A DNA stretch of 34,570 nucleotides from an uncultured Candidatus Saccharibacteria bacterium (GCA_964556655.1 CAZKWY010000007.1:1-34570), one strand, 5' to 3'; counted from the first letter of the stretch, positions 2,880 through 33,810 are shown. Numbers and translations are program-made. The notes: generated from the letters alone by a model not told the origin.

Positions 2880-3230
2880 TATTTTATTTTATTTTACCCC
2901 CATAGCCTAAACCTATTCCATTATTTTATTCTTACCCCATTATCCTATTCCTTCTTAACCTATTGGCCCATTAACCTACTCCTTCTTACCACCCCATCCT
3001 CTTAACCTACCACACCCACCCCCGTACCGAAAAAAATACACCGAAAAACTTAAAAAGGCAATATAACGGGGTTCTGTCTACGCGGGTTTTTTGGGGAGTG
3101 GGTTGTATGTTGTGAGTGTTGTGTGTTGTTGTGAGTGTTATGTGTTGTTGTGGGTTATGGGTTGTTGTTTGGGTTGTTTGTCCATCCCCATTCTTGTCTT
3201 ATTTGGTTTAGTATTCGCTGGGTTAGTTTA
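2880..3230. repeat. strand-asymmetric low-complexity tracts (CA-rich 2880-3030, then GT-rich 3060-3230)
   Basis: Repeated cctaacc/ccttcttacc-type units, followed by gtgttgttgtgagtgtt-type units. The GT-rich part overlaps the 3' end of the - strand gene 3155..3706. Confidence 0.4.
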
Positions 3231-3706
3231 TAGGTTTTGGTGGGGAGTCTTCTCATTAGTTCTTGGTTTAGTTTTTTGTATGCTCGTAGTTGTTCGGTGT
3301 CTTGGTTTATGTTGACGTTTATGTTTTCTGTTCTGGTTGGTCTTATTTTGTCTGCTATGTTTTTTGCGACGTCTATTCGGTATTTGGTTGCTGCTCTTTT
3401 GTTGGTGGGGTTGTCTGGTTTGGTGTGGTATAGTTCGTTGATCCATTTGTTTATAGTGGCTTCGTGTTCTGCTAGTTCTCTTTTGAGGAGTTTCTGGGTG
3501 TATTCACGTGTTACTATTTTGTCGAGTGTGGGGCGGCTTATCTGTAGGGCGTCGGCTATTTGTTGGTTGCTGAGGTGGGGGCTGCTTGTTATGAGTTCAG
3601 CGGCTTTGTTGGCGAGTGCTGTTCTTTTAGCGTCTGGTATACGGTATTTTTCTATGTTATCAGTTATTTTCTCTGTTGTTTCTATTTTTTTTGTTTGAGT
3701 GTTCAT
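3155..3706 (-). CDS. helix-turn-helix DNA-binding protein
   Basis: 183 aa ORF with an ATG start. HTH-like segment LSNQQIADALQISRPTLDKIV. The low-complexity C-terminus (NNPNNNP) comes from the CA-rich strand. Divergent from the terminase gene. Confidence 0.5.
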   Translation of the reverse strand: MNTQTKKIETTEKITDNIEKYRIPDAKRTALANKAAELITSSPHLSNQQIADALQISRPTLDKIVTREYTQKLLKRELAEHEATINKWINELYHTKPDNPTNKRAATKYRIDVAKNIADKIRPTRTENINVNINQDTEQLRAYKKLNQELMRRLPTKTYKLTQRILNQIRQEWGWTNNPNNNP

Positions 3707-3811
3707 TCTGTATGTGTATATGCATCCTTGTTTATAGGTTTACGTTTTTTTACGGTTCATGGGGGTTGATGTAAACATGTGACGGGTTTATGGGTTTATT
3801 AGTTTTATTAC

Positions 3812-3822
3812 TTATGCTATGT
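3812..3822 (+). promoter_or_regulatory. candidate archaeal TATA box upstream of the terminase gene
   Basis: tatataat lies about 20-28 nt upstream of the ATG at 3842, consistent with a leaderless or short-leader archaeal promoter. Confidence 0.3.
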
Positions 3823-3841
3823 ATATAATTGTGATATAGTT

Positions 3842-5428
3842 ATGGATATGGTTGTGGATATGGTTGATATGCGGGACACTGGTTTCACTTATAAGGGTGA
3901 GCCAGTTGATCCATGTGGTTCTTTATATGATTTCAGTAGATACTGTTTTAATCAACCTCATGAGAATAAACCGTTTCACGTGGATTGGTATGAGACTATC
4001 GCGGATCACAACATTAAGAGTGGTTTAATTATTGCTCCACGTAACAGTACTAAGAGTACTTGTTGGGGTAGAGTAGCGCCCCTATGGTTACTCGGCTGTA
4101 ACCCAGACTTACGTGTCGTTTTAGTTAGCCGTACCAGTAGCCTCGCTCAGGATAATCTACGTTTCATTCGTTTACAGGTTGAGAGTAATGACAAGGTACG
4201 GGAAGTGTTTCCCTATGAAGAGGTTAACGGACGAGTATTCGGGTTAAAAGCTAGTAGTCCATGGGGTACTGAGAAATTGACTATTATGAATAACCGTAAC
4301 GATGGAGTTCCCTCAGTGTACGCGGTTGGGTTAGAGGGAAGCATTTCAGGTATAAGAGCCGATTTGATAATAGTTGATGACTTAATTGACATTAATAACG
4401 TTATGACTGAGGGGCAACGTGAGAAAGTTAACGATTTCTGGGATAGCGTGATTTTACCTACGCTTAACCCTGATGGACGCATATTCCTTGTAGGGACACG
4501 GTATCACGCTAAGGATTTCTATAACCGTATGCTTGAAGACCCTATGTATAAGGATAACTCATTCATGTTCCCAGCGTTAACAAACGAGAAAGGGGAGACA
4601 TGGTATGATGAAGAAGACACACCGATTAGTTATTGGCCTGAACGGTGGCCTGTTGAGAGACTTATCTCTATGAAGGAACGTATGGGTAGTCTAGCTTTTA
4701 ACAGTCAATATCAATGTGATCCATCTGGGTACGCTGGAACCGTGTTTAACCCCGAGGATTTAATGTTTTATGACCCTGAACGTGACTTATTACCTATATG
4801 GGGTGACCTAGACTTCGTTATGAGTGTTGACCCTAACGTCACTGAGAACCCTGAATCAGATAACACCGCTATTGTGACCGCTGCGGTGGATAGGCGTCGT
4901 AGCCAGATATTCATTCTTGACATATACGCGAAGCCACTGGGTTTCACTAATCAAGTTAAGAAGATAACTGAGTATGGGCGTCGTCGACAGGTGTCGGTTG
5001 GTGATCTTCGGTTTGACTCTGAGATACGTATCAGTAAGATTGGGGTTGAGGCTGTCGCGTATCAGCGGAGTCTTCAGCAGACGGGTTATATGCTTGGTTT
5101 ACCTGTGGTTGAGGTGCAGCAGGGTAATAAGAATAAGGAAGTGCGTATAGTTGGTGTTCAACCGCATTTTGAGAACGGGCGACTGCGTTTACCTAATCCC
5201 GATAAAATTAGTCTCCCATGGTATGATGCCTTCTATAAAGAGTACGTGAGTTTCCCGAAGGGGCGGCGGGATGATATGCTTGACGCGGTTGAGATTCTTG
5301 TCGGTATGGTGAGTGATAGCTTCGCTGTTTCAGGTATACCATGGGGTCCTAGTGATGGGGGTGCGTTGAATATGAGTCGCAGTCGTTCAGGGCGTGGTTT
5401 AGGTTTCTCGGGGGGTTTCAGGGGCTAA
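3842..5428 (+). CDS. terL: terminase large subunit
   Basis: 528 aa. P-loop-like GLIIAPRNSTKST, Walker B-like DLIIVDDLID, C-terminal nuclease-like region. Typical position upstream of the portal gene. Unusual Gly/Ser/Arg-rich C-terminal tail. Confidence 0.9.
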   Translation: MDMVVDMVDMRDTGFTYKGEPVDPCGSLYDFSRYCFNQPHENKPFHVDWYETIADHNIKSGLIIAPRNSTKSTCWGRVAPLWLLGCNPDLRVVLVSRTSSLAQDNLRFIRLQVESNDKVREVFPYEEVNGRVFGLKASSPWGTEKLTIMNNRNDGVPSVYAVGLEGSISGIRADLIIVDDLIDINNVMTEGQREKVNDFWDSVILPTLNPDGRIFLVGTRYHAKDFYNRMLEDPMYKDNSFMFPALTNEKGETWYDEEDTPISYWPERWPVERLISMKERMGSLAFNSQYQCDPSGYAGTVFNPEDLMFYDPERDLLPIWGDLDFVMSVDPNVTENPESDNTAIVTAAVDRRRSQIFILDIYAKPLGFTNQVKKITEYGRRRQVSVGDLRFDSEIRISKIGVEAVAYQRSLQQTGYMLGLPVVEVQQGNKNKEVRIVGVQPHFENGRLRLPNPDKISLPWYDAFYKEYVSFPKGRRDDMLDAVEILVGMVSDSFAVSGIPWGPSDGGALNMSRSRSGRGLGFSGGFRG

Positions 5429-6168: not shown

Positions 6169-7698
6169 ATGAGTGAAGAAGAGGGTAAAGGGGAAACAGG
6201 AGGTATAAGTAGAAGCATTAGAAGCGGTATCCCGGGGCTAGGTGACAGCGGTGGGGTTGCTTCTGATAGCTACACTAGTCGTGAAAGCTTTAAAGCTTTT
6301 AATCAACGTGGAAGATATATTGGAGCATATGAGGGATACGGTGCTAAGATACGTGACACGGATCGTTTATTCTATAGTACACGTGAACCGGTTGGAGTGT
6401 GGTGGGTTAAACACATCGCGTATGATATCTTTGATAACGGTTTCCACGTGGTTAACCCTGATGATGTGGATGATAAAACACTGGATAGAGACGTTCAGAG
6501 ACTATTTCATCAGTTAAAAGCGAAGCAGGCGCTTATACGTAGCACGGTTTTTGAGCGAAGATACGGTACAAGCATACTTGTGCATAGCTACACGGGGTTC
6601 GGTGATAACGTCGATTGGGGGACGCCTTTATTCGAGTTAGAGCCAGACGGCTCGTTCCCAGATAACCTTAACGCGGGGGAGCTTCTTCAGGTAACACCTT
6701 ACCCGTGGACATCAGTTAACGTTGATGAACTTGATCTAGATGAGTCAAGCATACGCTATGGTTTACCTTTATACTATAAGATACATATAGGTTCAGCTTC
6801 AAGCGACACAGTTGTACCGAGCGGTGAACAAGCGGATAACACAGTTAAGGTTCACTGGACTAGAGTCACGTTAGATAATCCACGACTAGATGAACACCCC
6901 TATGAAGGCATACCAGCGATAGACGCTATATTCGATGACTTAGTTGGCGGACGTAACGCACGGTGGGGAGCGTATGAATCCTATTACCGCCACGGAACAG
7001 GTTTCCCCGTGATAAAGACAAGGGGTACTCCTGAGCAGAACCGTGAATGGATAGAGAACGGTGGACTCAACGACTACGTGAATGTACGTGGATACTTCGT
7101 GTGTCACATAGATGAAGAGTTCAGCTTCGAGGGAGCACAAGGAAGGGCGCTTAACCCTAACACCTACTTCGACATGTACTACACGTTCATAGCGGCAGCC
7201 ACGGGGGTAGCGAAGGATAGTATACAAGGAGTGAGCGCGGGGCGAGTAACTGGTAGCGAGGTGAATGAGCGTCAATACTATAAATCTATCTCCTTGCTTC
7301 AGAACCAGAAAGAACCAGTGATTAGGGAACTAGTGGATAGACTCATACAGACGGGGCAAATAGAATACGAGGGCGACTACGTGATTGACTGGGTTGACCC
7401 CTTCGAGGTTAACCCACAAGATAAAGCCGCTATAGAGTTCATGGAGACACGTACAAGAGCGTTGCAGACATGGAAAACGTTTAACGAGTTAAGAGCAGAG
7501 GAGGGCTTAGAACCCATAGAAGGGGGTGACGTGTTAATGAGTCTACCGGGGCAGATGGCGCCGGGGGGCAGTGAGCCTGCTCCTAACCAAGAGGAGCCGG
7601 CGGCAACTAGTTCTGAGCCGGAGGAAGGTAGTCCTAGTGAATCAACGTTACTTGATAAGGTTCTCGGTAAAGCCTTGGATGCCTTGGGTAAGGAGTGA
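6169..7698 (+). CDS. portal protein
   Basis: 509 aa ORF immediately downstream of the terminase region, with an acidic Pro/Glu-rich C-terminus. Called from size and gene order. Confidence 0.6.
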   Translation: MSEEEGKGETGGISRSIRSGIPGLGDSGGVASDSYTSRESFKAFNQRGRYIGAYEGYGAKIRDTDRLFYSTREPVGVWWVKHIAYDIFDNGFHVVNPDDVDDKTLDRDVQRLFHQLKAKQALIRSTVFERRYGTSILVHSYTGFGDNVDWGTPLFELEPDGSFPDNLNAGELLQVTPYPWTSVNVDELDLDESSIRYGLPLYYKIHIGSASSDTVVPSGEQADNTVKVHWTRVTLDNPRLDEHPYEGIPAIDAIFDDLVGGRNARWGAYESYYRHGTGFPVIKTRGTPEQNREWIENGGLNDYVNVRGYFVCHIDEEFSFEGAQGRALNPNTYFDMYYTFIAAATGVAKDSIQGVSAGRVTGSEVNERQYYKSISLLQNQKEPVIRELVDRLIQTGQIEYEGDYVIDWVDPFEVNPQDKAAIEFMETRTRALQTWKTFNELRAEEGLEPIEGGDVLMSLPGQMAPGGSEPAPNQEEPAATSSEPEEGSPSESTLLDKVLGKALDALGKE

Positions 7699-7702
7699 GA
7701 CT

Positions 7703-8593
7703 ATGGGTGATTCATTTTATACCCTTGTTTGCCCGTTATGTGACGGAGAACGTTTTATAACTGATTTATATAACTGTGAAGAGGTTTGCGTAAACTGTGG
7801 ATACGTGTTGAATAACCCATCGGATAAGAGAATACCTGTGCATCTACGAGGATACGAGAAAAACTATGGAGGCGAGGTACGTGAGAGTGTACATGATAAG
7901 GGGCTTAGCACAACGTTTAACGTTGGACGAGACGCCGCGGGGGCTTCACTGGATAAGGAAACCATGAACCTTGTTTACCGTATGAGGAAACATAACCGTC
8001 GTAGTAAGATAAATGACAGCGTTCAACGTAACCTCAGCATAAGCCTCAGCGAGCTTGACCGTATGATAGGGGTGTTAAAGCTACCTGAGTACGTGAAAGA
8101 GGAAGCTGCTCATATCTACCGCACGGCTTTACATATGGATATGATACGTGGGCGTAGTATAGATGACTTTGTAGCGGCAGCGGTTTATATGGCGTGCCGT
8201 AAACTACGGGTAGCACGCACCCTACGAAGCATAGTGGATGCGAGTAAGGGATGCTATGAGGATGTGTCCCGTACTTATCGTTTAATGCTACGTGAACTAG
8301 ATATACGTCTCCCCGTGGATACTCCGGGAAAGTTTGTGGCTGATATAGCTAGTTACCTTGGTTTACCTAGATGGGTTGAAAGGGAGGCTGTTGAGACGTT
8401 ATCTACGGCTCGTAGTCGTCGTTTAACGGTTGGTAAAGACCCTAAAGGGGTTGCTGCTAGTGCTTTGTATTATATTTGTGTAAAGAACGGGGTGGATGTT
8501 GTGCAACGTGATCTTAGTGAGGCTTGTGGAGTGTCTGAGATTACTATAAGGAATCGTTACCGTGACCTAGTTGACGGGTTAGGTGAGGACTAG
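7703..8593 (+). CDS. tfb: transcription factor B (TFB/TFIIB) homolog
   Basis: The ATG at 7703 directly follows the portal stop; the track ORF starts at an upstream GTG at 7571 inside the portal gene. N-terminal Zn ribbon CPLCDGERFITDLYNCEEVCVNCG. Two cyclin-like repeats: LPEYVKEEAAHIYRTAL...RGRSIDDFVAAAVYMACR and LPRWVEREAVETLSTARSRRLTVGKDPKGVAASALYYICV...ITIRNRYRDL. Confidence 0.85.
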   Translation: MGDSFYTLVCPLCDGERFITDLYNCEEVCVNCGYVLNNPSDKRIPVHLRGYEKNYGGEVRESVHDKGLSTTFNVGRDAAGASLDKETMNLVYRMRKHNRRSKINDSVQRNLSISLSELDRMIGVLKLPEYVKEEAAHIYRTALHMDMIRGRSIDDFVAAAVYMACRKLRVARTLRSIVDASKGCYEDVSRTYRLMLRELDIRLPVDTPGKFVADIASYLGLPRWVEREAVETLSTARSRRLTVGKDPKGVAASALYYICVKNGVDVVQRDLSEACGVSEITIRNRYRDLVDGLGED

Positions 8594-8620: not shown

Positions 8621-8953
8621 ATGTTTATTAATCATTCTACGCTAACTAATATGAGGATACTTCACGTGTCAGATGCAGATTCAAGTATTAACTACCCGAC
8701 TGTAAACGAGTGTAAACTTATTCAGAGAAGCGTTGATAACCGTTTTTTATCCCTAGAACATGATATAATGGAGAATAAACGGGTTAACAGTAAACTATCT
8801 AAGATAATAATAGGGAACGGAGGGGTTGGACTCGTAGAGAAAGTGAATCTACTCTATCACCGTAACCAGTTGCTTTACCATTTTTTCGGGGTAATACAGT
8901 CAATAAGTGTTTCACTTATAATATTATACTTAACAGGAGTTTTAAAACTATGA
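8621..8953 (+). CDS. hypothetical protein
   Basis: 110 aa ORF with a hydrophobic C-terminus, between the TFB and protease genes. Confidence 0.3.
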   Translation: MFINHSTLTNMRILHVSDADSSINYPTVNECKLIQRSVDNRFLSLEHDIMENKRVNSKLSKIIIGNGGVGLVEKVNLLYHRNQLLYHFFGVIQSISVSLIILYLTGVLKL

Positions 8954-10326
8954 AGGATATGAAGGAAGGAAAAGATATGAAGATAATTTATCAGCAAGAC
9001 GAATACACGTTATCACCTGACAAGATAACAGAGTACACTCACCCCGTGTACGGGGAAGTCACCGTGTTCCATGACGTAGTGATAGCGTCAGAGATAGTTC
9101 AACAATACAGCGACGGATACGCTTATAAGCCAAGAGAAGAGTTACAGCAATACACGTGGACAGCCGACGGTAGATGGGTTACACTCCGTCAACACCCCCA
9201 AGAGGGAGTGATAAGCACCCGTGACCAAGTGTCAGGGCGCACTGTGAACCCCAGATACGTGAAGAACCTGAAAGACCATGAAACAGGGAGACCTAACAGA
9301 GCAGGCGTATTAGCTGACGTGGAGATATTTAACGAACGAACCACCCCTCAGGCGCTTAAAGACATGCGAGACGGTAAGAAACAGGATGTAAGCATAGGGT
9401 TCTTCTACACACATGACGCAACGAAGGGAGTAGTAAACGATGGACCGTTTAAGGGAAGAGAATACGATTACGTTCAACGAAACATGTTTCATGATCATCT
9501 TGCGGCTTGTATTGATAACGGTCGTTGCCCTATGCCTCTATGCGGGATTGGGGCTGACGAACTAGGGCGTAGGTTGACTGGTGATCCCTTCGCTGGGTTC
9601 GAGGGGTTTGATGGTTTCGTGGCTAAGATATTGGAGGAGAACAGTGATTTGAGTCGGGGGGACGCTGAGAAGATATGCGGTGAACTTAAATCAGAGCATG
9701 AGGATACATGTAGTGAGGACACATTGTTGAATGCTAAGGTACGTGAGTTAATAACGGTTCTCATGGATGAGTTGGAGGAAGTTAAAGGTATGAGAGACGC
9801 TGAACGGGAACATGAGTGGATTACGAGTATAGATTGGGGAGTTGAGCCTTTCACATCTATATACGGGAGACTAGCTGAGGATACTCGGTTGCAGATTAAG
9901 GAGCTTGGACTCTGCCCCACGTGTGAGGATTCTAAAGCAGTGGATATGTCGCTTGAAGAGATTAACTCTAAGATTAAGGAGCTACAAGATAGAAGAGACG
10001 AGTTACAGGAAAAAATAGATGAAATCTATGACGAAAACATGTCTAAAGAAGAGGAAGATCCTACTTCTGAGTTATGGGATGAGATAGAGAAACTTCGAGA
10101 TGAAATTGAGGTGCTTCTTCACGCTAAAGCTATTAAACTCGCGGAAGAGAAGTCTGAGGATAAATCAGATGAATCAGAGGAAACCGAGGATGAGTCTGAG
10201 GGAAAAGAGAAGTCTGATGAACCGTCTGAGGAATCTGAACCCGATGAGGATGTTAAGGATGAGGCGTCAGGGAAGAGGGTTGACGTGGATGCTTTGCTTG
10301 AGCGTGCTAATAGGGTTCTCGGATAA
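8950..10326 (+). CDS. prohead protease (HK97/S78-like) fused to an acidic coiled-coil scaffold-like domain
   Basis: 458 aa. N-terminal region with an HET...AGVLADVEI...DVSIGF pattern resembling the His/Ser motifs of HK97 gp4-type prohead proteases. C-terminal 150 aa is a strongly acidic coiled coil (KELQDRRDELQEKIDEIYDE..., ESEETEDESEG). Confidence 0.5.
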   Translation: MKDMKEGKDMKIIYQQDEYTLSPDKITEYTHPVYGEVTVFHDVVIASEIVQQYSDGYAYKPREELQQYTWTADGRWVTLRQHPQEGVISTRDQVSGRTVNPRYVKNLKDHETGRPNRAGVLADVEIFNERTTPQALKDMRDGKKQDVSIGFFYTHDATKGVVNDGPFKGREYDYVQRNMFHDHLAACIDNGRCPMPLCGIGADELGRRLTGDPFAGFEGFDGFVAKILEENSDLSRGDAEKICGELKSEHEDTCSEDTLLNAKVRELITVLMDELEEVKGMRDAEREHEWITSIDWGVEPFTSIYGRLAEDTRLQIKELGLCPTCEDSKAVDMSLEEINSKIKELQDRRDELQEKIDEIYDENMSKEEEDPTSELWDEIEKLRDEIEVLLHAKAIKLAEEKSEDKSDESEETEDESEGKEKSDEPSEESEPDEDVKDEASGKRVDVDALLERANRVLG

Positions 10327-12400: not shown

Positions 12401-12829
12401 ATGTCTAAAGAAGAGAAAAATAATAAGGAAAATAAAGAAGAAAAAGGTAAAGACGAGAAACCTGAAACAATAGACGTTAACATGGCTCTCGTATTAGCCC
12501 AACTAGAGGAAGCACTAGACACAGTAGAGAAACTAGAAACCGAGCGAGATGAACTTAAGGAAGAAAACTATAAACTAAGGGAAAGAATAAACCAGGATAG
12601 CAAGAAAACAGTGATAAACGACATAGCACAGAAAACCACTCTCAGCAAGAAAATCTTAGCGGAGATGGATTTAAAGGAACTATTAAAGTACAAGAAAATC
12701 CTAGACACAGCAAAGACATCTAGCTTCAAATCAGCGACACCCCTAAAACTAGGGAAAGACGACCCGAGGGCAAAAGTAGAGTCTATGCACGATGATTACA
12801 TGCGTAAACTTAAAGGAGGACACAAGTAA
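12401..12829 (+). CDS. coiled-coil Lys/Glu-rich protein (scaffold-like)
   Basis: 142 aa highly charged alpha-helical sequence. ATG start preceded by GAGAGG. Position just upstream of the decoration and capsid genes. Confidence 0.45.
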   Translation: MSKEEKNNKENKEEKGKDEKPETIDVNMALVLAQLEEALDTVEKLETERDELKEENYKLRERINQDSKKTVINDIAQKTTLSKKILAEMDLKELLKYKKILDTAKTSSFKSATPLKLGKDDPRAKVESMHDDYMRKLKGGHK

Positions 12830-13311
12830 TGACAACTTACCCAGTTAAACCAACTACACTAATACTAGCAGGCGGACAACCCCTAGAAATGGAGTGGAAA
12901 GCCGCAACAGCAAGCGCAATACTACCCGGAGACCTCGTGCAATTCAATAACGCTCCAACTGATTGTACCATTAAAGAAGCGGCAGCGGATAGCACAGAAG
13001 TAATCGGCGTAGCAGCGATAAGCCCCGTACCAGGTGCAACCCCCCCACGTGGAGGGGATAGAACCACAGCCTTCGAGGCGGGAGACCAAGTGAAGACTAT
13101 ACGTGGCCCAATCACAGCTATGCTACGTATAGCGTCTAGCCAGGAGATTCAGTGCGGTGAGTTCGTGCAGCCAGCGGCTTCAGGTGAAGTGAAGGCGTAT
13201 ATATGTGGGACTGATAATGATTGTCAGCGTATCGCGCAGGCTCTTGAAACAACTTCAGTGGATACTACGAGTTTCCAGTGGGGAATATTTGCCTTGGAGA
13301 GGCTAAGTTAA
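12829..13311 (+). CDS. putative head decoration-like structural protein
   Basis: 160 aa Ala/Gly/Thr-rich ORF. TAATG overlap with the upstream gene and AAGGAGGA SD. Position immediately before the major capsid protein. Resembles phage decoration proteins in composition and length only. Confidence 0.35.
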   Translation: MTTYPVKPTTLILAGGQPLEMEWKAATASAILPGDLVQFNNAPTDCTIKEAAADSTEVIGVAAISPVPGATPPRGGDRTTAFEAGDQVKTIRGPITAMLRIASSQEIQCGEFVQPAASGEVKAYICGTDNDCQRIAQALETTSVDTTSFQWGIFALERLS

Positions 13312-13318: not shown

Positions 13319-14212
13319 ATGAATATGAGAAGAGATCCATTTGCAGCAGACGTTGGAATACTAACAGAGGAAGAGCAGTCATACATTGAGACACGGGTGG
13401 TTGAAACCTATAGAGCACAGCTTAGAGCGCGTCAACTGTTTAACCTATTAAATATAGGTGACGATGGCGGCGAGAAGCTTTACAGGTTCTACACTGAAAC
13501 CGATCCTAGTGAAGCGATGATTGATATGCATGGAGTAGGGGCGAGCAATGATCTTCCTGAAAAGACAGCGAACGACATTGATCTACCTGTCATACATAAA
13601 GAGTTCTTCATACCTTGGCGTGACTTAGCGGCAAGTAGAAACGAGGGGCCGAGTCTTCTTGATGATAGTATAAGAACTTGCACTAGGAAAATAGCGGAGG
13701 CAGAGGATAAACTACTTATCACAGGTCAATACACTGGCTGGGATGCTCTCGAGTTAGAGGGCTTCTTCACAGCGACGGGTAGAACCGATAACGCTTCTGC
13801 TGGTGTATGGCCGGATAACGCTTATGAGGATATTAACACTGCTCGGGGTGCTTTGCAGGATTCAGGGTTTGACGACGTTGAACCTGTTCTTGTTGCGCCC
13901 CCTGCGTTAATTACTTCATTAGATGACTTGATTGCTAACACAGGTATTACTTATAAGCAGTCGTTTATGAGTAATGGTTTGCTTAGTGATATTATTCCAT
14001 CTAGTAACGCTTACGCGGCTGACGGGAATCAGGATAGCGCTGTGTTAGTTGTACCCGGTGGCGGGAACTTCTACGCGGTTGAGGCTTTACCTATTATGAC
14101 TAGGTTGTTTGAGGATAGGATGGGGAATGTTCACGGAACTGTTCGTGAGGTTGTTGCCCCTATTATAGCTAGACCAACTGCTATTGCTGAGATTAACACT
14201 ATTACGACTTAG
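13319..14212 (+). CDS. major capsid protein, HK97/encapsulin-like fold
   Basis: 297 aa. N-terminal LTEEEQSYIETRVVETYRAQLRARQLF and C-terminal GNFYAVEALPIMTRLFEDRMGNVHGTVREVVAPIIARP match the conserved pattern of encapsulin-type HK97-fold capsid proteins. AGAGGT SD. Confidence 0.8.
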   Translation: MNMRRDPFAADVGILTEEEQSYIETRVVETYRAQLRARQLFNLLNIGDDGGEKLYRFYTETDPSEAMIDMHGVGASNDLPEKTANDIDLPVIHKEFFIPWRDLAASRNEGPSLLDDSIRTCTRKIAEAEDKLLITGQYTGWDALELEGFFTATGRTDNASAGVWPDNAYEDINTARGALQDSGFDDVEPVLVAPPALITSLDDLIANTGITYKQSFMSNGLLSDIIPSSNAYAADGNQDSAVLVVPGGGNFYAVEALPIMTRLFEDRMGNVHGTVREVVAPIIARPTAIAEINTITT

Positions 14213-14284: not shown

Positions 14285-14680
14285 TTGAGTTATAGTCTTA
14301 AAGAGTTAGCGAAGGGAAGCGGGTTTAAGTCATCGGTTACTGTTAACGAGTCAATGGATTCTCATACGGTTCTCTACGTGGATAGTAATGGTTGCTGGGT
14401 GAAGGCGGATGCTAGTGATGCTTCTAAGATGCCGTGTAGTGGTATATCATGTGAAGATATATCATCAGGGTTGAAGGGAACAATACTTGTGACTGGGTTG
14501 ATTCATAGTAATAACTGGAACTGGACTCCTGGGGGGTTACTCTATGTTTCAACTACTAGTGGGGATATGACTCAGACAGCACCTGATGCGCAGGGTAATC
14601 GTGTTCAAATAGTTGGGAGAGCGTTATCAACGACGCTGATATTATTTAACCCTGACTTCTACATGACAACGGTTTCCTAA
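14285..14680 (+). CDS. hypothetical structural protein
   Basis: 131 aa. TTG start at 14285 with upstream GGTGA; no early ATG. Gly/Thr-rich and beta-rich in appearance. Directly follows the capsid gene. Confidence 0.35.
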   Translation: MSYSLKELAKGSGFKSSVTVNESMDSHTVLYVDSNGCWVKADASDASKMPCSGISCEDISSGLKGTILVTGLIHSNNWNWTPGGLLYVSTTSGDMTQTAPDAQGNRVQIVGRALSTTLILFNPDFYMTTVS

Positions 14681-14768
14681 TGACTTCAAAGGGTTTCATA
14701 ATGGTTTCATAGGTTCACAAAGTTTTTAACTTAATCATACAACATATCTAATAGATACAGAGAGAGAT

Positions 14769-15341
14769 ATGAAGATGAAACCTGAAGGAAACTATGAGAT
14801 GCGGTTCATATGCGATGAAAACGGTAAACTATTGAAAGGTGCACCCGGTAACTATACGTGCGGGGAAACCTATATGATGCCTCTTCGTCACAGTGAATAC
14901 CCGTACTGGGAGCTATTAGGGGAACCCCCCGTGTTAGAGATACCGCCTCCAAGCGAGGATGATGACGTGTTTAGCGGTGTATCACCTTTACCTGATATAG
15001 AGGTAGAGCAAGATGATTCAGATAGAGAAAACGTTGAGGACTTTGACGCGGAGAACGTTGACGCTGACGCCCCCGCCGTGCTTGAGCCTTATGCAAGTAT
15101 TAAGAATGGGAAAGTTGTTGCTTATCAAGAGGAGACACGTATACCAGAGGTGTCGGATAGTAACGAAGCTGAGGAAGAGGAAACCGATGAGGAACTTGAT
15201 GAGTTTCCTAGTGACGAGGAGTGGAGTAGGGATGAGTTGAAACGTATCCTAGATGAAGAGGGAGTAGAGTACAGTAAATACGCTCATACACCTACTTTAA
15301 AGGAGAAGGTTGAGGAACTTGGCTCTGAAGAAGAGTCTTAA
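14769..15341 (+). CDS. hypothetical acidic protein
   Basis: 190 aa with an ATG start. C-terminal two thirds extremely acidic (EDDDVFSG..., EAEEEETDEELDEFPSDEEWS). Confidence 0.4.
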   Translation: MKMKPEGNYEMRFICDENGKLLKGAPGNYTCGETYMMPLRHSEYPYWELLGEPPVLEIPPPSEDDDVFSGVSPLPDIEVEQDDSDRENVEDFDAENVDADAPAVLEPYASIKNGKVVAYQEETRIPEVSDSNEAEEEETDEELDEFPSDEEWSRDELKRILDEEGVEYSKYAHTPTLKEKVEELGSEEES

Positions 15342-16014
15342 AGTATTCACAGCGATACCGAATCTACGTAAAGGAGACGAGTACGGGGGATACCTCGGCT
15401 CGGTTCTAAACCATTTACATGCTCAGGAAACCTCGGTTAAGGTTCTTGAACCCTACATAACCACGAATTATCACGGTAAATTTAAACCCGGTGAAGATAG
15501 TAAACTAGATGCAATCACTTATCAGATGAACCGTATAGTTGATAAATTCATGGCTAGTGACGCAACGCATTTATTCTTTAACGATGGAGACGTGGAGATA
15601 CCGCCAGACACTATTGACACTCTTCTCAGACATAACGTGGATTTAGCGAGCGGTGTTTACCCTTTTAAGAACTTTGACTCAGTTTACGCTATGCTATTCG
15701 GGCGTATGGCTGAGAATAAGCCATGCGGTAACTTTATTCCACGTGACTGGGATCACATGAAAGGTAGAGTATGGGGGGAGAAAGATAAATGGGCGGGGGG
15801 TAGTGGCTGTATGCTTGTTAAGAGAAGAGTGTTTCAACGTTATCACCCTAATATTCCTCCTCTACGTTTCAGTCGTGACGGGGGTTGTAGTCTTGATATG
15901 TTGTTCTGGAAACGTGTTCAAGACGCTGGGTTCACTGCACGTGTTGACGCTAGGGTGGTGTGTGGGCATCTCCCAGAGCATCCGTTAAATGAGATAAATG
16001 AATGGCTAAAATGA
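15310..16014 (+). CDS. family-2-like glycosyltransferase (GT-A fold)
   Basis: 234 aa. LEPYITTNY (compare the IPTYN motif), DGD (a DxD-like motif in FFNDGDVEIP) and GGSGCMLVKRRVF (compare GGxxxxRRxxF). No in-frame ATG before the N-terminal motif, so a TTG start at 15310 or 15319 after AAGGAG is implied. Overlaps the previous ORF by about 30 nt. Confidence 0.55.
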   Translation: MRNLALKKSLKVFTAIPNLRKGDEYGGYLGSVLNHLHAQETSVKVLEPYITTNYHGKFKPGEDSKLDAITYQMNRIVDKFMASDATHLFFNDGDVEIPPDTIDTLLRHNVDLASGVYPFKNFDSVYAMLFGRMAENKPCGNFIPRDWDHMKGRVWGEKDKWAGGSGCMLVKRRVFQRYHPNIPPLRFSRDGGCSLDMLFWKRVQDAGFTARVDARVVCGHLPEHPLNEINEWLK

Positions 16015-16034
16015 TTGTTTGGAGTGAATAGTGA

Positions 16035-16628
16035 TTGAAGACGATTCGTGGACTCAGTGTTGACAGAGTAGAGTGCGTGGATAGAACCCGTAACGTTTTT
16101 CATGGAGTAGACGAGGATACTGGTTTCATCTTCACTGTTAAGCAACCGTCACGAATGGATACACGGGAGCATAAGAAGGCGTGGAACCAGTTAACCGAAA
16201 ACACTGTTAACCATTATAAACGGTTAAACCTAGATGATGAGTATTATGATAGTAAGTATAGGTGTAGTCTCCCAAAGTTTCAGCCAAGTCAACACGGTTT
16301 CCTCCCCCTAGTTATGATTATAGATGGTAACATTGTAGGGTTCGCTGATATGCTGTTCTATAAAGGAGACGAATACATGCTTCATGATATCCCCCTAGAT
16401 GATGTGGGGTGCAGTATGAATCTATGCGTATTAGACTCTTATCAAGGACTAGGAATAGGATACTATTATAGCGTTATGAGTGTAAAGATAGCTAAACATT
16501 TTAAAGCAGACTGGGCGCTAGGGTTCACTGAGCGAGATGGCGCCATGTGGCGTCTCCGTAAGAAACAAGGGTGGACACTAGTAGGGTACTATCAAGGTAA
16601 CTACGTTGTTATAAAGAAACAACTATAA
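16035..16628 (+). CDS. GNAT-family acetyltransferase-like protein
   Basis: 197 aa. Motif-A-like VLDSYQGLGIGYYYSVMSVKIAK. TTG start after GGAGTGA; alternative GTG/ATG starts downstream. Confidence 0.5.
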   Translation: MKTIRGLSVDRVECVDRTRNVFHGVDEDTGFIFTVKQPSRMDTREHKKAWNQLTENTVNHYKRLNLDDEYYDSKYRCSLPKFQPSQHGFLPLVMIIDGNIVGFADMLFYKGDEYMLHDIPLDDVGCSMNLCVLDSYQGLGIGYYYSVMSVKIAKHFKADWALGFTERDGAMWRLRKKQGWTLVGYYQGNYVVIKKQL

Positions 16629-16676: not shown

Positions 16677-17003
16677 GTGGCGTACTGCACGAACACCCAA
16701 GTCAAGGCAATAGTAGACACAGATATGAGCGACGCAGAGGTAACAGAGTATATCACGGAGACAGACGCATACCTCGATGAAATACTTGACACAGGCACAT
16801 TATCAGCGACGATACTACAGATGCTATCAAGACACTACACAGCGTACCGAGTCATGCTTAAAGACCCGAACGCTCGTACAATAGGAAGCTACAGTGAGAA
16901 CCGTTCAGATACAATGAATTTAATGAAAGCAGAGTTCGATCACCTAGTGTTCATGTTCGCAGGAGGCATAGCGTTCACAGCAGCGGGGGAGAGCCTATAT
17001 TGA
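16677..17003 (+). CDS. head-tail connector protein (gp6-like)
   Basis: 108 aa with a GTG start. N-terminal TNTQVKAIVDTDMSDAEVTEYITETDAYLDEILDTGTL resembles the N-terminus of gp6-type head-tail connector/DNA-packaging proteins. Confidence 0.45.
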   Translation: MAYCTNTQVKAIVDTDMSDAEVTEYITETDAYLDEILDTGTLSATILQMLSRHYTAYRVMLKDPNARTIGSYSENRSDTMNLMKAEFDHLVFMFAGGIAFTAAGESLY

Positions 17004-17148: not shown

Positions 17149-17496
17149 ATGGCGACAGCATCCCCCTTCATAGACGCTATGGGTGAATCCGCTACACTGA
17201 AAACACGTGCACAGGGAGCAAGAGACGCGGTGACACAGTGGCCTGTTGTCACGTATACGGATAGTACTATAAAGATACTTGTGGATCATAATCAAAGCAC
17301 GATAAGGGAGCTTGGCGGGGAACGTGTCTCGCATCAAGTGTTACGGGGATTCATAAAGAGCAGTATCACGGTGACGGATCAAGACCGTGTAGTGTATCAT
17401 GGGGAAACCTACCTAGTTGAGGGATTAGAGAACGTAGAGTATCATCTAGGGGATGCTTCATATAAATCCGTGACTCTTGTGAGGTTAACCGAGTAA
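17149..17496 (+). CDS. head closure / head-tail adaptor-like protein
   Basis: 115 aa. Called from position and size after the connector gene. GGAGCGGG SD. Confidence 0.4.
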   Translation: MATASPFIDAMGESATLKTRAQGARDAVTQWPVVTYTDSTIKILVDHNQSTIRELGGERVSHQVLRGFIKSSITVTDQDRVVYHGETYLVEGLENVEYHLGDASYKSVTLVRLTE

Positions 17497-19621: not shown

Positions 19622-20376
19622 TGGCGACAGAGCGTATAAGAGTAGATATATCACGGGATGACTTAGATAAATACCTCGATGACTTAAGTAAAGTTAGAAC
19701 CGGGACAGAGGAAACAGAGTCAGGTTTACCGGGGATAAGGAAAGAAGTTAATAAGATAAGAAGAGAAGCAGCTGCCTCTGGTTTAAACCTAGATGAGTTA
19801 CCTGCTCTTAACCGTGAGTTAAGGATTATCGGGCGTCTTATACCCGGGTTCACACGTGGCTCTAGCCTATATTTTCAGTTACGGAGACAAGTTAGGGGGC
19901 AGATGGGCACACGTTCCGCTGATGCTTTACGTGAACAGTTAAGCGACCCTAAGTTTATTCAAGACTTGATGACTGAGACAGGGGAAACTGAGAACGTTAT
20001 ACGTAACTTTATCGAGAAACAGATAACCGCTGATTTAATGAAGGGGGCTTTAGCGAAAATCGTTATAGTTGCGGTTATAATTCAATTCATTGTAAAGACT
20101 ATTAGACAAGTAGAGAAAAAGATTGAACGTGAACGCGCTCAGTTTGAGAACGAGATAAGGCGTGACACTGAGCTTACGCATAGACAGTTCCGTGAATTAC
20201 AGGCTGAGCAGATAGGGTTCGCTACGTGGGTAGATCAGTTTGAAGCAGAGTGGGATGAAGAAGGGTTTGTGAATACGGCTGTTAAAACAGTGATAAACCG
20301 TCTTCAAGCACAAGGATACATATTACCGAAGGGAGGGAAATACACGGCGGCTTCGCAAGTTGATCCGTGGCAGTGA
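19621..20376 (+). CDS. tape-measure-like coiled-coil protein with one TM segment
   Basis: 251 aa largely helical protein with a hydrophobic helix (ALAKIVIVAVIIQFIVKTI), located before the large fibre gene. TAATG overlap with the upstream gene. Confidence 0.35.
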   Translation: MATERIRVDISRDDLDKYLDDLSKVRTGTEETESGLPGIRKEVNKIRREAAASGLNLDELPALNRELRIIGRLIPGFTRGSSLYFQLRRQVRGQMGTRSADALREQLSDPKFIQDLMTETGETENVIRNFIEKQITADLMKGALAKIVIVAVIIQFIVKTIRQVEKKIERERAQFENEIRRDTELTHRQFRELQAEQIGFATWVDQFEAEWDEEGFVNTAVKTVINRLQAQGYILPKGGKYTAASQVDPWQ

Positions 20377-20378
20377 CA

Positions 20379-23300
20379 ATGACAGATGTAACAATAACTA
20401 TTGGTGGAAACAACGTTAGTAACAGCGTCATAGACGTAGACATATATAAAAATAAGGATACGGGGATAGGTAACTGTGAGTTAATACTAGATAATGATAG
20501 TGACACATGGGGTGACACGTTTAACCCTAATGACGCTGTGAGTATAAGCATAAACGGTGACCTAGTTTTCACTGGATACGTTGACGACGTTGTGCCGAAG
20601 CTAGAGAAAACAGGTGTCTTAACTAATAGGCTACGGGTTAAAACACGTGACGATGGGAGAATACTTACAGATTACTATGTGACAACCCCTAGATACAATA
20701 AAACCGCAGCAGGAGTTATAATAACTAACATATTATCAGAGGCAGGAGACCCCTTAACCTACTCTGACCCGGGTGGAACGCCTTCGATTACGTATAAATG
20801 TAAACGCACTAAGCTAAGTGACGCTTTAAATGATATAAGTAAACTCTCTGGATGGGATTACTATGTTGACACAACGGGGGAGCTTCACTTCTTTGAAGCA
20901 GGCACCGTTGATAGCGGAGTGGATTTAATCAGTGAAGCAGGGGGAGCGAATAATAATCTTCTCAGCTTCGAGGAGTATGAGAGTATAGGAGTAGATATTA
21001 AGAACTATATTGAGATACACGGTGGCTCGTTGAAGGATCACTGGACAGAGGGAAACGCTAGTGACTGGAGCGTGTTAACTGGGGCAGGTACAACCATGGA
21101 TGATGATGACTCGGTTCATCACCCGTATGGTGACTATAGCGTTGAGATAGTTGTAGCGGATACTGATGAAACGGTTGGATTAGACTTCAGTGGGGGCTTG
21201 TATAGTCAGGGAACTAGTATTGATTTAACTGAGTTCTGTCAATCAACAATCATATTCATACCTAAAGCAGGTTCAACGGGGGCATTTAGTTTTCAGCCTT
21301 ACCTTAAAGACGGTTCTGGTAGAGACATATTCTTCTATAGAAGTAAGGATGATGGAAACGGAAGAACTAACACTGCGTTAGGGGGTGGACTGGACGCTGA
21401 TGTATTTTCATGGAGAATACTTAAGTATCCTATGGGTGAGCATACTGATAACGAGATAGTGGATTCAGGTACAACCACTATGAAGAACGGTAAATGGCAT
21501 GGAAACCCTAACTTTGATTGGAGCGACGTAGAGCAACTAGGATTCAACATACAGGTAAGTGACACCGCTAACGTTGACACAATATACGTTGACATGTGGA
21601 GTATACCTAGCTTAGAAGTTAAAAGCATATCAGAGGACAGCGGAGCAGGAAGCAGTCAAGAAACCTACGGAAAGCGAATGTACAGTGAGTATAAGAAAGA
21701 GTTAACCAGTCAAGGCGAGTTAGATGATTATTCAGCGAAGCAGTTAGCGTTAAAGAAAGACCCTGTGAAGAAGTTTAAAGCATTAGCCGTAGGGGAAACA
21801 GGTACATTATACGCGGCTCAATCAGTAGACGTGTTAGCCCCGGGATACGGTATAGCGGCTCTCACGGATTACATAATAGTTGAGCTTCATCATATACTTC
21901 ATAACGATGACGATGAACGGGGATGGGATTATGTTACAGAGTATGAGTTAGCTGAGTCAGATGTAGACGCTACACGTATCATATACACGGATAACCCCGT
22001 GGAAGCAGAGTTACAAGCACTACGTAAAGCGAATAGAGGATATAAGGGAAGCGTAACTGATGACGATTACTGGATAGGGAACATATCACTAGGAGTAGGC
22101 ACACAGATACTTAGAGGAACAGAGTTCCCAACGGATCAGAACGATGGAGACGAGTTCTTCCTAACCACAGATTATACGGATGGAGGGGGTAACGAGTACT
22201 ATGGCCCAGCGTTATATAAGTATGATGACGATGCTGGTGACTGGGTGCGTAACCCCATAGTCATGCATCGGGGTGCTGACCCTAACGCGGGGGGGGAGGT
22301 TACAGGGGACACGCTTCACCGTACGGATGAGGATAAATGGTATGAGTGGACTGGTGCTGCTTGGAGTCTTATAGAGTTCGCGGCTTCCACGGTTAGCGGT
22401 GAACTTGACGCGGATCAATTATCAATAGAGATGCGTCCATGGAGTCATAACCTTGAACTAAGGTTCTACGAGGACGCTGCAAACGACTACGCGTCACCAG
22501 TTATAGATAGGGTTTACTGGGGGAAAGGAGGGGAATACAGTGAAGGAGTGGACGCGGATGATAGCGGGTTCTCTGAGGTGAATGAAGCTCAGGTAAAGTT
22601 TGACGGGGGAACCACTGTGGATATAAACTCAGGTGACTCTGATGATGATTACCCCGCTGGTTTAGCTGTTGGAAAACATTTCCTGTACTGGGATGAAACA
22701 GAGAAAACGGGGGATGACTATGATCTTCAGATAGCTAGTGGTGTGGATAACTATGGTGACGCTGTTGGCTCAGGGAAGGGACTTATCGCGATAATAGGTA
22801 TAGATGCGTCTGGTACACCTACTCTTATACCTGTTGATAGTTATTTTCCATATCTAGGTGTAGGTGTGTTGAACGCTAACACGGTGTTAAGTAGACATAT
22901 CACTGCAACGGAGTGGATTACAGGTAAAAACTTTCAAACCGCAGTGGATGTAGGGTCTGGTAGTGCGGGAATAAAATTTAATTCAAACGGGATAATAGGA
23001 TACACCGCGGGAGGAGACAAAACTGTTGAAATGGAGGCGGGAACAGGACATTTCATAGCTTACGGTAACGCTGGTGGGGGGGCAGGTTCATTCAGAATAA
23101 ATATTGGTGGAGATAACTATGGGTGGATTAGTTGCCAAGACGATGGAGCAGATGAAGTAGTAGAGATAAGAGGAGACAACCAGATATGGATGAATGTCTT
23201 CGGAGATTTAATTAAATTACTTCCAAACAAAGAAATTCAAGCTAAATCCTATAATATAGAAAATGCACCAGCAGACGACACAGGAACCGGGATAACTAAA

Positions 23301-23678
23301 ACATTCATAGCAACAGAAGCAATAGCAATAGGACAAGCAGTATATTTGGATGATGATGGAGACACATATGCGGAAGTAGGTTTAGCAAGAGCACACTCAT
23401 ACGCTACAATGCCATGTATCGGAATAGCCACATCAACAGCCGCAGCAGATGGGGATACTTTAACGGTGCTTCTATTCGGCGTCATGGAGGACACTTCGCG
23501 TTGGAGTGGATTCGCTAACCCCGGTGACGGAGTATATGTATCAGAGTCCACGGCAGGAGACTTAACAACCACGCAACCAAGTGGTAGCGGGGAACTTGTG
23601 CAACGCGTCGGAGAAGTCACTGATGACGGTGGAGAGTTATTGTTTGCGCCAAACAAGTATATCTTGGAGCTAGCGTAG
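20379..23678 (+). CDS. large tail fibre / host-recognition structural protein (1099 aa)
   Basis: The ATG at 20379 follows the upstream stop; the track start is a GTG at 20367. Gly/Asp/Thr-rich and beta-rich throughout. The N-terminal 100 aa resembles distal-tail/baseplate-type domains. Confidence 0.5.
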   Translation: MTDVTITIGGNNVSNSVIDVDIYKNKDTGIGNCELILDNDSDTWGDTFNPNDAVSISINGDLVFTGYVDDVVPKLEKTGVLTNRLRVKTRDDGRILTDYYVTTPRYNKTAAGVIITNILSEAGDPLTYSDPGGTPSITYKCKRTKLSDALNDISKLSGWDYYVDTTGELHFFEAGTVDSGVDLISEAGGANNNLLSFEEYESIGVDIKNYIEIHGGSLKDHWTEGNASDWSVLTGAGTTMDDDDSVHHPYGDYSVEIVVADTDETVGLDFSGGLYSQGTSIDLTEFCQSTIIFIPKAGSTGAFSFQPYLKDGSGRDIFFYRSKDDGNGRTNTALGGGLDADVFSWRILKYPMGEHTDNEIVDSGTTTMKNGKWHGNPNFDWSDVEQLGFNIQVSDTANVDTIYVDMWSIPSLEVKSISEDSGAGSSQETYGKRMYSEYKKELTSQGELDDYSAKQLALKKDPVKKFKALAVGETGTLYAAQSVDVLAPGYGIAALTDYIIVELHHILHNDDDERGWDYVTEYELAESDVDATRIIYTDNPVEAELQALRKANRGYKGSVTDDDYWIGNISLGVGTQILRGTEFPTDQNDGDEFFLTTDYTDGGGNEYYGPALYKYDDDAGDWVRNPIVMHRGADPNAGGEVTGDTLHRTDEDKWYEWTGAAWSLIEFAASTVSGELDADQLSIEMRPWSHNLELRFYEDAANDYASPVIDRVYWGKGGEYSEGVDADDSGFSEVNEAQVKFDGGTTVDINSGDSDDDYPAGLAVGKHFLYWDETEKTGDDYDLQIASGVDNYGDAVGSGKGLIAIIGIDASGTPTLIPVDSYFPYLGVGVLNANTVLSRHITATEWITGKNFQTAVDVGSGSAGIKFNSNGIIGYTAGGDKTVEMEAGTGHFIAYGNAGGGAGSFRINIGGDNYGWISCQDDGADEVVEIRGDNQIWMNVFGDLIKLLPNKEIQAKSYNIENAPADDTGTGITKTFIATEAIAIGQAVYLDDDGDTYAEVGLARAHSYATMPCIGIATSTAAADGDTLTVLLFGVMEDTSRWSGFANPGDGVYVSESTAGDLTTTQPSGSGELVQRVGEVTDDGGELLFAPNKYILELA

Positions 23679-33664: not shown

Positions 33665-33810
33665 TAGAGGATTATTATTGTTATGGTTGTGGATCAATCA
33701 ACCTTCGCTTTGATAGGGGGTTCCGAGTAGTCTGTCTTGATTGCGGAAGAGATTGGTATGAAATAAGAAAATCTATTCAAGATAAAATCTTATTTGAGGA
33801 AGAACAATGA
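33661..33810 (+). CDS. Zn-ribbon 49-aa protein
   Basis: Not in the track. CYGCG...CLDCG. ATGA overlaps on both sides. Confidence 0.3.
   Translation: MIEDYYCYGCGSINLRFDRGFRVVCLDCGRDWYEIRKSIQDKILFEEEQ

Follow-up and report, generated by a model that had tools for sequence, protein, structure and literature searches.

A candidate virus-encoded capsid glycosylation module in the head-gene operon of an archaeal tailed virus

Virion glycosylation by virus-encoded enzymes is well documented in giant viruses and chloroviruses, has recently been described for a few mycobacteriophages, and is suspected for Sulfolobus turreted icosahedral virus (STIV). In chloroviruses, one enzyme joins glycosyltransferase (GT) and methyltransferase domains, and the glycans are built on capsid or fibril proteins. 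What GTs do in archaeal viruses has been called unclear in a review-type statement. Here, we analyzed a 34.6-kb stretch of DNA (CAZKWY010000007.1:1-34570, hereafter the window), which is part of the 59-kb metagenomic contig Logan SRR7048225_56066 and in which a predicted GT gene lies among the head genes of an archaeal tailed virus, preceded by a gene for a hyper-acidic protein and followed by one for a GNAT-like acetyltransferase (Table 1). About 100 related viruses overall were compared with it, and the related viral loci are labelled with L-numbers. Based on these sequence comparisons, we lean, with some reserve, towards the reading that the locus encodes a capsid O-glycosylation module built into the head-morphogenesis operon.

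By analogy, the closest counterpart of the window GT is A197 of STIV, a suspected cytoplasmic glycosyltransferase of the capsid protein whose donor and acceptor are reported as undetermined (PMC10551542). Both are minimal single-domain GT-A enzymes of archaeal viruses, the one described here being known from genes and a model, and they share ~13% sequence identity. STIV is a double-jelly-roll, membrane-containing virus in which the glycosylated major capsid protein is B345, whereas the window virus is a tailed HK97-type virus in which the GT is placed in the head operon, often together with tailoring enzymes, and the predicted acceptor residue is on a cement protein. Moreover, A197 is reported to be essential, whereas the GT has been lost repeatedly in the lineage of the window. 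Mycobacteriophages Che8 and Rita (cluster F1) also encode GTs that glycosylate capsid proteins, according to the passage of PMC11256854 that cites Freeman et al. 2023, with a glycan shield as the result. The likeness is that of a tailed virus encoding GTs for capsid glycans; the mycobacteriophages infect bacteria, however, and the same passage locates their GT genes close to the 3' end of the genome and gives the major capsid protein as acceptor, in contrast to the head-block GT and the predicted cement acceptor of the window (PMC11256854). No sequence relationship of the window GT to the Che8/Rita system was detectable.

The PBCV-1 (Paramecium bursaria chlorella virus 1) Vp54 machinery, Mimivirus R699 and the L230-like collagen GT are likewise cytoplasmic, virus-encoded GT-A enzymes, but their hosts are eukaryotic, their capsids belong to another lineage, and the likeness to the window GT is at the fold level only (11–18% identity). 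The cellular best fold matches, COLGALT1 (GT25) and the GT domain of LH3, are GT-A enzymes with an Asp/Asp/His metal site, and their sugar goes to a hydroxyl group on a protein side chain. They differ from the window GT in sequence (11–14% identity) and in having collagen hydroxylysine as acceptor, and as the window GT has no Pfam GT25 match, we do not assign it to GT25. Serotype-converting phages, too, have GT and acetyltransferase genes for altering a glycan, in their Gtr/O-antigen loci. Gtr proteins are membrane proteins encoded beside the integrase/att site and act on host lipopolysaccharide; in the window, by contrast, the GT is predicted to be soluble, the enzymes lie in the head operon, and the GT covaries with a residue of a capsid protein. 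The predicted acceptor groups with the cement/decoration proteins XM1 gp53, TW1 capsid-stabilizing protein, Pam3 gp6/E217 gp24 and lambda gpD, and its gene has a gpD-like position just before the capsid gene. What sets the locus apart from these systems is the archaeal HK97-type tailed virus, the head-block position, the predicted cement acceptor and the modular tailoring slot. In the literature searched, which was a limited library, we found no report of glycosylated phage cement/decoration proteins; no description of a GT module in archaeal tailed viruses was found there either, and the published Bathyarchaeia virus families do not mention the module.

Covalent modification of virion proteins had been proposed from the sequence in the original prediction, and it gained indirect support from a cement-protein threonine that covaries with the presence of the GT. 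We tested 450 columns of the cement and capsid proteins against GT presence; an independent set for the covariation comprised 80 metagenome loci (the best 80 of 157), drawn with the capsid-protein alignment, plus three IMG/VR loci. Cement column 146 ranked first among the 450 (p = 6.5e-7), the next column reaching 8e-4. Cement proteins of the covarying clade share the ending ...E-S-S-N-V-[T/A]-x-D-A-E-I-L-V..., and position 146 was Thr in 27 of 27 genomes with a GT (including four whose GT is cut by the contig end), whereas 7 of the 8 genomes lacking an intact GT had Ala there (Fisher p 1.2e-6). Genomes that lack the GT occur at separate places in the capsid-protein tree (L084, L185/L168, and L085 and L175), implying that the GT was lost independently at least three times, on branches amounting to 18% of the tree length. 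Locally, their sequence is still that of their GT-bearing sisters, which speaks against a recombinant block common to them. The Thr146 codons vary synonymously among GT-bearing genomes, and the codon is GCN in the GT-lacking ones. The sole Thr among the latter occurred in L174, whose sister L175 has Ala; both carry an identical 45-residue N-terminal GT remnant after the capsid gene (about 2968-3150 in L174 and about 5647-5830 in L175), which points to recent loss of the GT. In the clade of the window itself (121 sequences, at least 57% identity), position 146 is Thr in 120 sequences and Ser in one, in an otherwise variable loop near the cement C-terminus whose positions 141–145 and 147 vary freely. 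Position 47, a weaker candidate, is Thr or Ser in 92% of this clade.

The cement protein was recognized by its profile likeness and by its gene lying beside the capsid gene. Among 33 homologues, 21 match XM1_gp53_minor_capsid (best 2.9e-9), 9 match Phage_cement (1.2e-7) and 5 match Phage_cement_2, and the family profile searched against the PDB found 'Cement' (8hdt_G, E 0.016) and 'Capsid Stabilizing Protein' (5wk1_X, E 0.021). The window cement protein on its own gave a weak match (E 0.042). In the covarying (SNVT) clade, L079-L204, the last cement residue also differed with GT status: it was Ser (...EPAAAS) in 21 of 24 genomes with the GT and Ala (...EPAAAA) in 7 of 9 without it (p = 8e-4), a Ser-to-Ala change that is two nucleotide changes away from the common AGC/AGT codons. 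This C-terminal Ser may be a second modification site in that clade; it is not conserved in the window clade, and was therefore not used for the window.

Several observations weigh against the proposed module and its predicted site. The covariation was measured in a sister clade with 36–44% capsid-protein identity to the window, Thr146 was transferred to the window by aligning a loop that is not otherwise similar, and the window clade offered no GT-lacking genome for contrast. A GT-bearing clade (L008, L141, L146 and L147) has Ala at this position and Thr two residues earlier. In the covarying clade the site reads N-V-T, so that the Asn might be N-glycosylated there; since the window clade has no N-x-T sequon at site 146, O-linkage to Thr is the simplest reading for all clades. 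Of 41 capsid-anchored loci, 22 carry the GT at a distance of 0.2–2 kb behind the capsid gene and the other 19 lack it, so that it is dispensable for making the capsid. Finally, only one of five models of the GNAT protein was confident, and its fold gives no substrate.

The same data bear on the choice of acceptor. No capsid-protein column separated genomes with the GT from those without it, and the major capsid protein was rejected as acceptor on this ground. It is rather unlikely, in our judgement, that the module glycosylates another virion protein (the auxiliary cement-like protein, the capsid protein, the acidic protein or a fibre-like protein) and that Thr146 covaries for an indirect structural reason. 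Such an acceptor would fit the finding that, in many distant loci, the next gene after the GT encodes a fibre-like protein with a GLDADxVDGxHA motif, as well as the acidic or small protein that is the most constant immediate neighbour of the GT, and the glycan-bearing major capsid protein that the passage in PMC11256854 reports for Che8 and Rita. On the other hand, L084 retains a fibre-like protein after loss of the GT, L084 and L092 retain the small protein, and cement position 146 gave the strongest signal by three orders of magnitude. The fibre-like proteins were observed in the distant clade, where one to three of them follow the GT (L082 10752-12518, L084 10170-11996, L088 11271-14503, L089 4161-5570); they contain a Gly run and the GLDADxVDGxHA motif, the longer ones with repeated His-rich segments. 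These proteins may be head fibres as well as alternative glycan acceptors.

Under the preferred reading of a cement-protein glycosylation module, the GT would use a host nucleoside diphosphate (NDP) sugar in the cytoplasm during late expression and head assembly, and would attach the sugar to Thr146 of the cement protein, with Thr47 as a possible second site. The outcome would be a sugar coat on the outer face of the head, with stability, solubility, adhesion or evasion as conceivable benefits. Swapping of the downstream enzymes would diversify the capsid glycan; relatives fill the tailoring slot differently, and the glycan structure would therefore differ between strains. We give about even odds to this fuller version, namely an inherited O-glycosylation system with a priming GT-A enzyme, swapping tailoring enzymes and a strain-specific coat, whose acceptor Thr is replaced by Ala upon loss of the GT. 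If true, no earlier virus-encoded system for capsid glycosylation would be on record for archaeal Caudoviricetes, nor any earlier glycosylated cement/decoration protein, both as far as the literature was searched. Capsid glycan coats would then be an old and widespread strategy of sediment tailed viruses, the lineage would offer a natural case in which an enzyme is lost and its acceptor residue is lost afterwards, and the enzyme would be a small, soluble O-glycosyltransferase for proteins that comes with a modular set of tailoring enzymes. The vague label of a GT in a virus is replaced by a specific hypothesis of one enzyme, one 160-residue acceptor and one residue. The virus and its Bathyarchaeia-type host are both uncultivated, yet the enzyme–acceptor pair is still accessible via a standard host.

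The enzyme assignments rest on structure, because the profiles were blank for the GT and below threshold for the GNAT protein. A Pfam search of the GT at E<=0.1 gave no match, and PHROGs gave only a family of unknown function and a weak GT match. Weak Glycos_transf_2 matches were present in 8 of 30 GT relatives (best 6.5e-6). Modeling with AlphaFold2 and 30 homologues gave a structure with a predicted local distance difference test score (pLDDT) of 93.6 and a predicted TM-score (pTM) of 0.91. Foldseek searches of this model against the PDB returned 437 matches at E<=1e-3, of which the top 50 were GT-A glycosyltransferases or nucleotidyltransferases of the same fold class. The best were COLGALT1 (9evj, 9.6e-10, TM 0.61), Mimivirus R699 (1.7e-8) and STIV A197 (2.6e-8), with LH3 (2e-7) and WrtF among the further matches. 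The BFVD neighbours, GT-A proteins as well, came from uncultured tailed phages, from giant viruses and from Sulfolobus filamentous virus 1, and matches included Klosneuvirus, Orpheovirus, Megavirus and PBCV-1 Q98454. A sequence-profile search of the PDB placed STIV A197 at the top, with a weak E value of 0.13.

As originally reported, the GT carries DGD (residues 92–94) and GGSGCMLVKRRVF (residues 163–175), and the third open reading frame (ORF) carries QGLGIG. Residues D94, D111 and H220 are invariant among 30 sequences, and D92 and D196 nearly so, a residue set that fits a divalent-metal- and NDP-sugar-dependent enzyme. No hydrophobic or membrane segment was found in the GT. The model thus shows the ORF to encode a soluble ~26-kDa minimal GT-A glycosyltransferase. 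It was originally described as GT2-like. The GT-A fold was found, but the gathering threshold of the Pfam GT2 family (PF00535) was not reached, and we place the protein in a divergent GT-A family close to, but not within, GT2. Its 88 homologues at E<=1e-3 include none named glycosyltransferase by any source, and a Pfam match was present only in the three most distant of them. An exhaustive profile search delimited the close GT family at 33 cluster representatives (E<=1e-30) and the surrounding GT-A superfamily at 3,392 (E<=1e-10). If the proposed reading is true, it would give a function to a family unannotated as glycosyltransferase, with its 88 close homologues and 3,392 representatives.

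The placement of the module was conserved in the lineage: the gene order was repeated in dozens of related loci, which rules out chance, and in every long contig available the GT held the same position. The order capsid gene, cement-like ORF, acidic ORF and GT was found in L063, L064/65 and L068 and also in IMG/VR loci. In L066 a GNAT homologue replaces the cement-like ORF before the acidic ORF and the GT, and in L006, L007 and L011 the acidic ORF and the GT are present with no cement-like ORF detected. Identities of the GT and the capsid protein to their window counterparts fall in step (64/64, 47/51 and 34/31%, respectively), and by these comparisons the GT is shown to be co-inherited with the capsid genes. 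A connector-like gene is kept just 3' of the glycan cassette in L068, L069, L006 and L011, whereas in L077, which has no GT, the connector-like ORF directly follows the capsid gene; the GT block is therefore an insert between head and neck genes. In the window, the module genes share a strand and have operon-like spacing, and the capsid and cement-like genes upstream and the connector-like and weak head-closure matches downstream place the enzymes within the head-to-neck block, with the coordinates of all three ORFs exactly as first described. The expectation that such enzymes do not belong in a head block did not hold, since a GT after the capsid gene is recurrent and vertically inherited in this lineage.

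Downstream of the GT, the cassettes vary. In close relatives, a two-domain GT2, a GT1, FkbM and CmcI methyltransferases, a polysaccharide deacetylase and radical-SAM (S-adenosylmethionine) enzymes were found 3' of the GT, and relatives' cassettes contain 2–6 further GTs together with sugar O-methyltransferases, deacetylase and radical-SAM enzymes. In the distant clade, a SAM methyltransferase is fused to the GT or follows it, and in the wider superfamily the GT domain is fused to GT1, GT2, a TylF-type sugar O-methyltransferase or a mannosyltransferase. BLASTP against the labelled cassette proteins found no other sugar enzymes in the GT-lacking relatives. As judged from gene content, the system is one conserved GT with variable sugar-tailoring enzymes, of which the window holds a minimal version.

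Such variable content is typical of surface-glycan loci, and it is the context in which the other original proposal, that the enzymes modify a host surface glycan, has to be weighed. The enzymes would then remodel dolichol-linked S-layer N-glycan precursors or a surface polysaccharide, which could block superinfection or aid release, and the head block would be a tolerated insertion site. GT2 enzymes of the archaeal Agl pathway work on the cytoplasmic face of the membrane, one phage record labels a homologous region 'dpG-synthase-like', and the GT has a weak profile match to dolichol-phosphate mannose synthase (5mlz, E 1.5). Against this stand the lack of a membrane segment in the GT, its inheritance with capsid genes and not with lysogeny genes, its covariation with the cement Thr, and the GT-less L077, in which the neck gene comes directly after the capsid gene. 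Host-glycan modification is thus possible but less favoured, and we regard it as unlikely.

A role in glycosylating viral DNA, for example at hydroxymethylated bases as a protection against restriction, with the HeH-containing acidic protein as DNA-binding partner, is very improbable. It would accommodate the DNA-binding-type HeH motif of the neighbouring protein, the C5 and N6/N4 DNA methylase genes in the window, and the sub-threshold match of one distant superfamily member to a TET-associated GT. However, no TET/JBP, hydroxymethylase or thymidylate-synthase-like genes, nor other genes of nucleotide metabolism, were found in the scanned window ORFs or in the called genes of the next 10 kb of the contig, and DNA glycosylation was rejected on this basis; the fusion partners of the GT are sugar-chain enzymes, and the Thr covariation indicates a protein acceptor. 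As to the methylases, two ORFs of ~200 residues (235-843 on the - strand and 33807-34433 on the + strand) match only the first 80–90 positions of the C5-cytosine DNA methylase profile and may be short or split methylases. A complete N6/N4 methylase is encoded at 29215-29997 (+), and another on the rest of the contig.

Returning to the proposed module, its third ORF was confirmed at the fold level, by modeling, as a GNAT acetyltransferase, in agreement with the initial assignment. Profile matches were below the Pfam gathering thresholds (Acetyltransf_1 and Acetyltransf_7; 19.1 bits versus 27 and 16.5 versus 20.7; E 0.0018 for Acetyltransf_7), and a sequence-profile search of the PDB was uninformative. 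The best AlphaFold2 model had a pLDDT of 91 and the other four 51–64; the top 50 Foldseek PDB matches were all GNATs, with the GNAT domain of S. lividans PAT as the best (1.3e-9). The loop Q137-G-L-G-I-G142 has the motif A pattern (Q/R-x-x-G-x-G/A), and Y136, G138, L139, G140 and G142 are invariant in the nine homologues of this rare family. Foldseek searches returned the expected fold for both enzymes, GT-A for the one and GNAT for the other.

In the minimal module of the window, the GNAT enzyme would be the tailoring enzyme, most likely N-acetylating an amino sugar. Acetylation of a virion protein at a lysine or the N-terminus, independent of any sugar, is a doubtful though real possibility; it concerns the GNAT only and is compatible with the proposed role of the GT. 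The best fold neighbours include the protein lysine acetyltransferases S. lividans PAT, E. coli PatZ, Rv0998 and Sulfolobus PAT, but with TM-scores of just 0.5–0.6, and aminoglycoside and polyamine acetyltransferases score nearly equally. In L066, a GNAT homologue (32% identity) lies directly after the capsid gene and ahead of the GT. GNATs are also found inside sugar-enzyme cassettes, the window family at the end of the L068 glycan cassette and an unrelated, Pfam-recognised GNAT between the GT and a GT1 in L069, and elsewhere among the relatives the tailoring role falls to a methyltransferase, either fused to the GT or encoded behind it. The gene neighbours in relatives would thus point at least as much to sugar tailoring, and a protein amine is the less likely substrate.

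Initiation of the GT had been predicted to occur at a TTG codon or by a frameshift fusion to the acidic protein, as there was no in-frame ATG and an overlap of about 30 nucleotides (nt). The overlap is 32 nt, and indeed no in-frame ATG precedes the first beta strand of the GT. Candidate starts are TTG 15310 (234 residues) and TTG 15319 (231 residues), and the AAGGAG motif before the former suggests translational coupling from the acidic ORF. A fusion would require a +1 shift inside 15301-15338, where no slippery run was found. The heptamer T TTA AAG at 15296 leads into the -1 frame, which stops at 15311-15313, and not into the +1 frame of the GT; no conserved slippery site leading into the GT frame was found. 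In addition, a TAA at 15298 closes the GT frame 9 nt before the TTG. In relatives, the GT has its own start: an ATG immediately 3' of the upstream stop in L064/L065, an ATG within a 17- or 35-nt overlap in L066 and L069, and a GTG after a 21-nt gap in L068. Homologues are 229–245 residues long with a common N-terminal motif, M-x-L-K-S. Hence, with the TAA, the missing slippery run and the relatives' own starts, the GT is initiated independently; it is probably translationally coupled to the acidic ORF, judging by the AAGGAG motif. The 32-nt overlap and the missing ATG notwithstanding, a frameshift fusion is extremely improbable, and this part of the original prediction was dropped in favour of the TTG start.

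The extremely acidic protein of 190 residues described at first is present, with 56 Asp+Glu (29%) against 16 Lys+Arg and an isoelectric point of 4.05. It is composed of a conserved N-terminal domain of ~55 residues, a disordered acidic linker and a C-terminal HeH/SAP-like helix pair; in an alignment of nine syntenic homologues the linker is variable, acidic or proline-rich. Its C-terminus resembles the C-terminal part of phrog_1539 (2.9e-5), and the L068 homologue matches Pfam HeH (4.6e-6). In distant relatives, short forms of 71–93 residues, with the N-terminal domain and a lysine-rich tail, precede the GT. As the acidic or small protein is retained in L084 and L092 despite loss of the GT, it is not simply a subunit of the GT; possible roles are those of an adaptor or of a head protein bound to DNA or to the capsid. 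In the 88-nt gap before its gene (14681-14768), AAAGTTTTTAAC was spotted by eye ~40 nt upstream of the ATG. This could be an archaeal B recognition element (BRE)/TATA element or an oligo-T terminator, and the acidic, GT and GNAT ORFs may therefore form their own transcription unit.

Table 1 Features of the window that are discussed in the text.
Feature	Position	Strand	Remarks
Large terminase	3842-5428	+	
Portal	6169-7698	+	
TFIIB/TFB homologue	7571-8593	+	PF00382, 5.8e-35; two cyclin repeats and weak Zn-ribbon
DUF2213 prohead-protease-like protein	8950-10326	+	
Coiled-coil scaffold candidate	12401-12829	+	
Capsid cement (decoration) protein, 160 residues, predicted GT acceptor	12829-13311	+	Just upstream of capsid gene
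Cement-protein peptide ALETTSVDTTSFQW	ORF 12829-13311		
Candidate acceptor sites in cement protein	Thr146, 13264-13266; Thr47, 12967-12969	+	Thr47 weaker
HK97-type major capsid protein	13319-14212	+	Linocin_M18 5e-13; phrog_264 'major head protein' 8e-13
Second, auxiliary cement-like ORF, 131 residues, TTG start	14285-14680	+	Phage_cement_2 E 0.0032; phrog_4368 7e-12
Hyper-acidic protein, 190 residues, ATG start	14769-15341	+	
AAGGAG, Shine-Dalgarno-like motif	15300-15305	+	4 nt upstream of TTG 15310, within 3' end of acidic ORF
GT ORF, 234 residues, TTG start	15310-16014	+	GT-A fold (model)
GT key residues	D92-G-D94, 15583-15591; D111, 15640-15642; D196, 15895-15897; H220, 15967-15969	+	
GNAT ORF, 197 residues, TTG start	16035-16628	+	GNAT fold (model)
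Acetyl-CoA motif QGLGIG, residues 137-142	16443-16460	+	
Connector-like ORF	16677-17003	+	Downstream edge of inserted module; phrog_302 weak, E 0.032
Head-closure match, weak	17149-17496	+	phrog_161, E 0.014
Additional ORFs including large tail proteins	from 17496	+	

Scans with Pfam and PHROGs profiles revealed a tailed-virus morphogenesis block on the + strand of the window. The virus was assigned to archaea because it has a TFB gene and, elsewhere on the contig beyond the window, genes for an MCM helicase and a RadA-like protein. Its relatives are proviruses within long contigs of Bathyarchaeota metagenome-assembled genomes (MAGs), a cement homologue with 62% identity is assigned by NCBI to a Bathyarchaeia MAG, and the host is probably a member of the Bathyarchaeia. 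Comparison with known phage records at the nucleotide level gave no match, and all protein-level matches in the phage collection had <=33% identity.

The auxiliary cement-like ORF has homologues at the equivalent place in L063, L064 and L068, and in relatives the protein forms the N-terminal domain of proteins of 307–371 residues. In L069, a homologue of this small ORF sits among the post-connector genes. A further Phage_cement_2-like domain (E 3e-4) is found at the C-terminus (residues 966-1035) of a tail/baseplate-like protein of 1,103 residues encoded at 20367-23678 (+). A cement-type beta domain seems, from these matches, to be common to head and tail proteins.

The TFB gene is placed between the portal and protease genes, and has the same place in L063. 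According to a preprint, TFB homologues of archaeal viruses were earlier known only from some rod-shaped viruses, the exceptions described there being an Asgard spindle-shaped virus and mobile elements. The region 5' of the terminase gene contains imperfect tandem repeats, of 19 nt at 3099-3175 and of 12 or 23 nt at 3818-3866, the latter array extending into the first codons of the gene. The composition of this region is strongly skewed (AT skew -0.46 in 3001-4000), and the repeats may be a packaging or regulatory site. One contig of a single Bathyarchaeota MAG (CAVQNT010000006.1) carries two related provirus-like head modules, L070 and L072, ~257 kb apart, with the gene order portal, protease, cement, capsid and GT; their portal genes are fragmented, by decay or by long-read indel errors. 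In the window, TTG is the apparent start codon of unusually many likely genes, for example those at 14285, 15310, 16035, 25197, 29215 and 30341.

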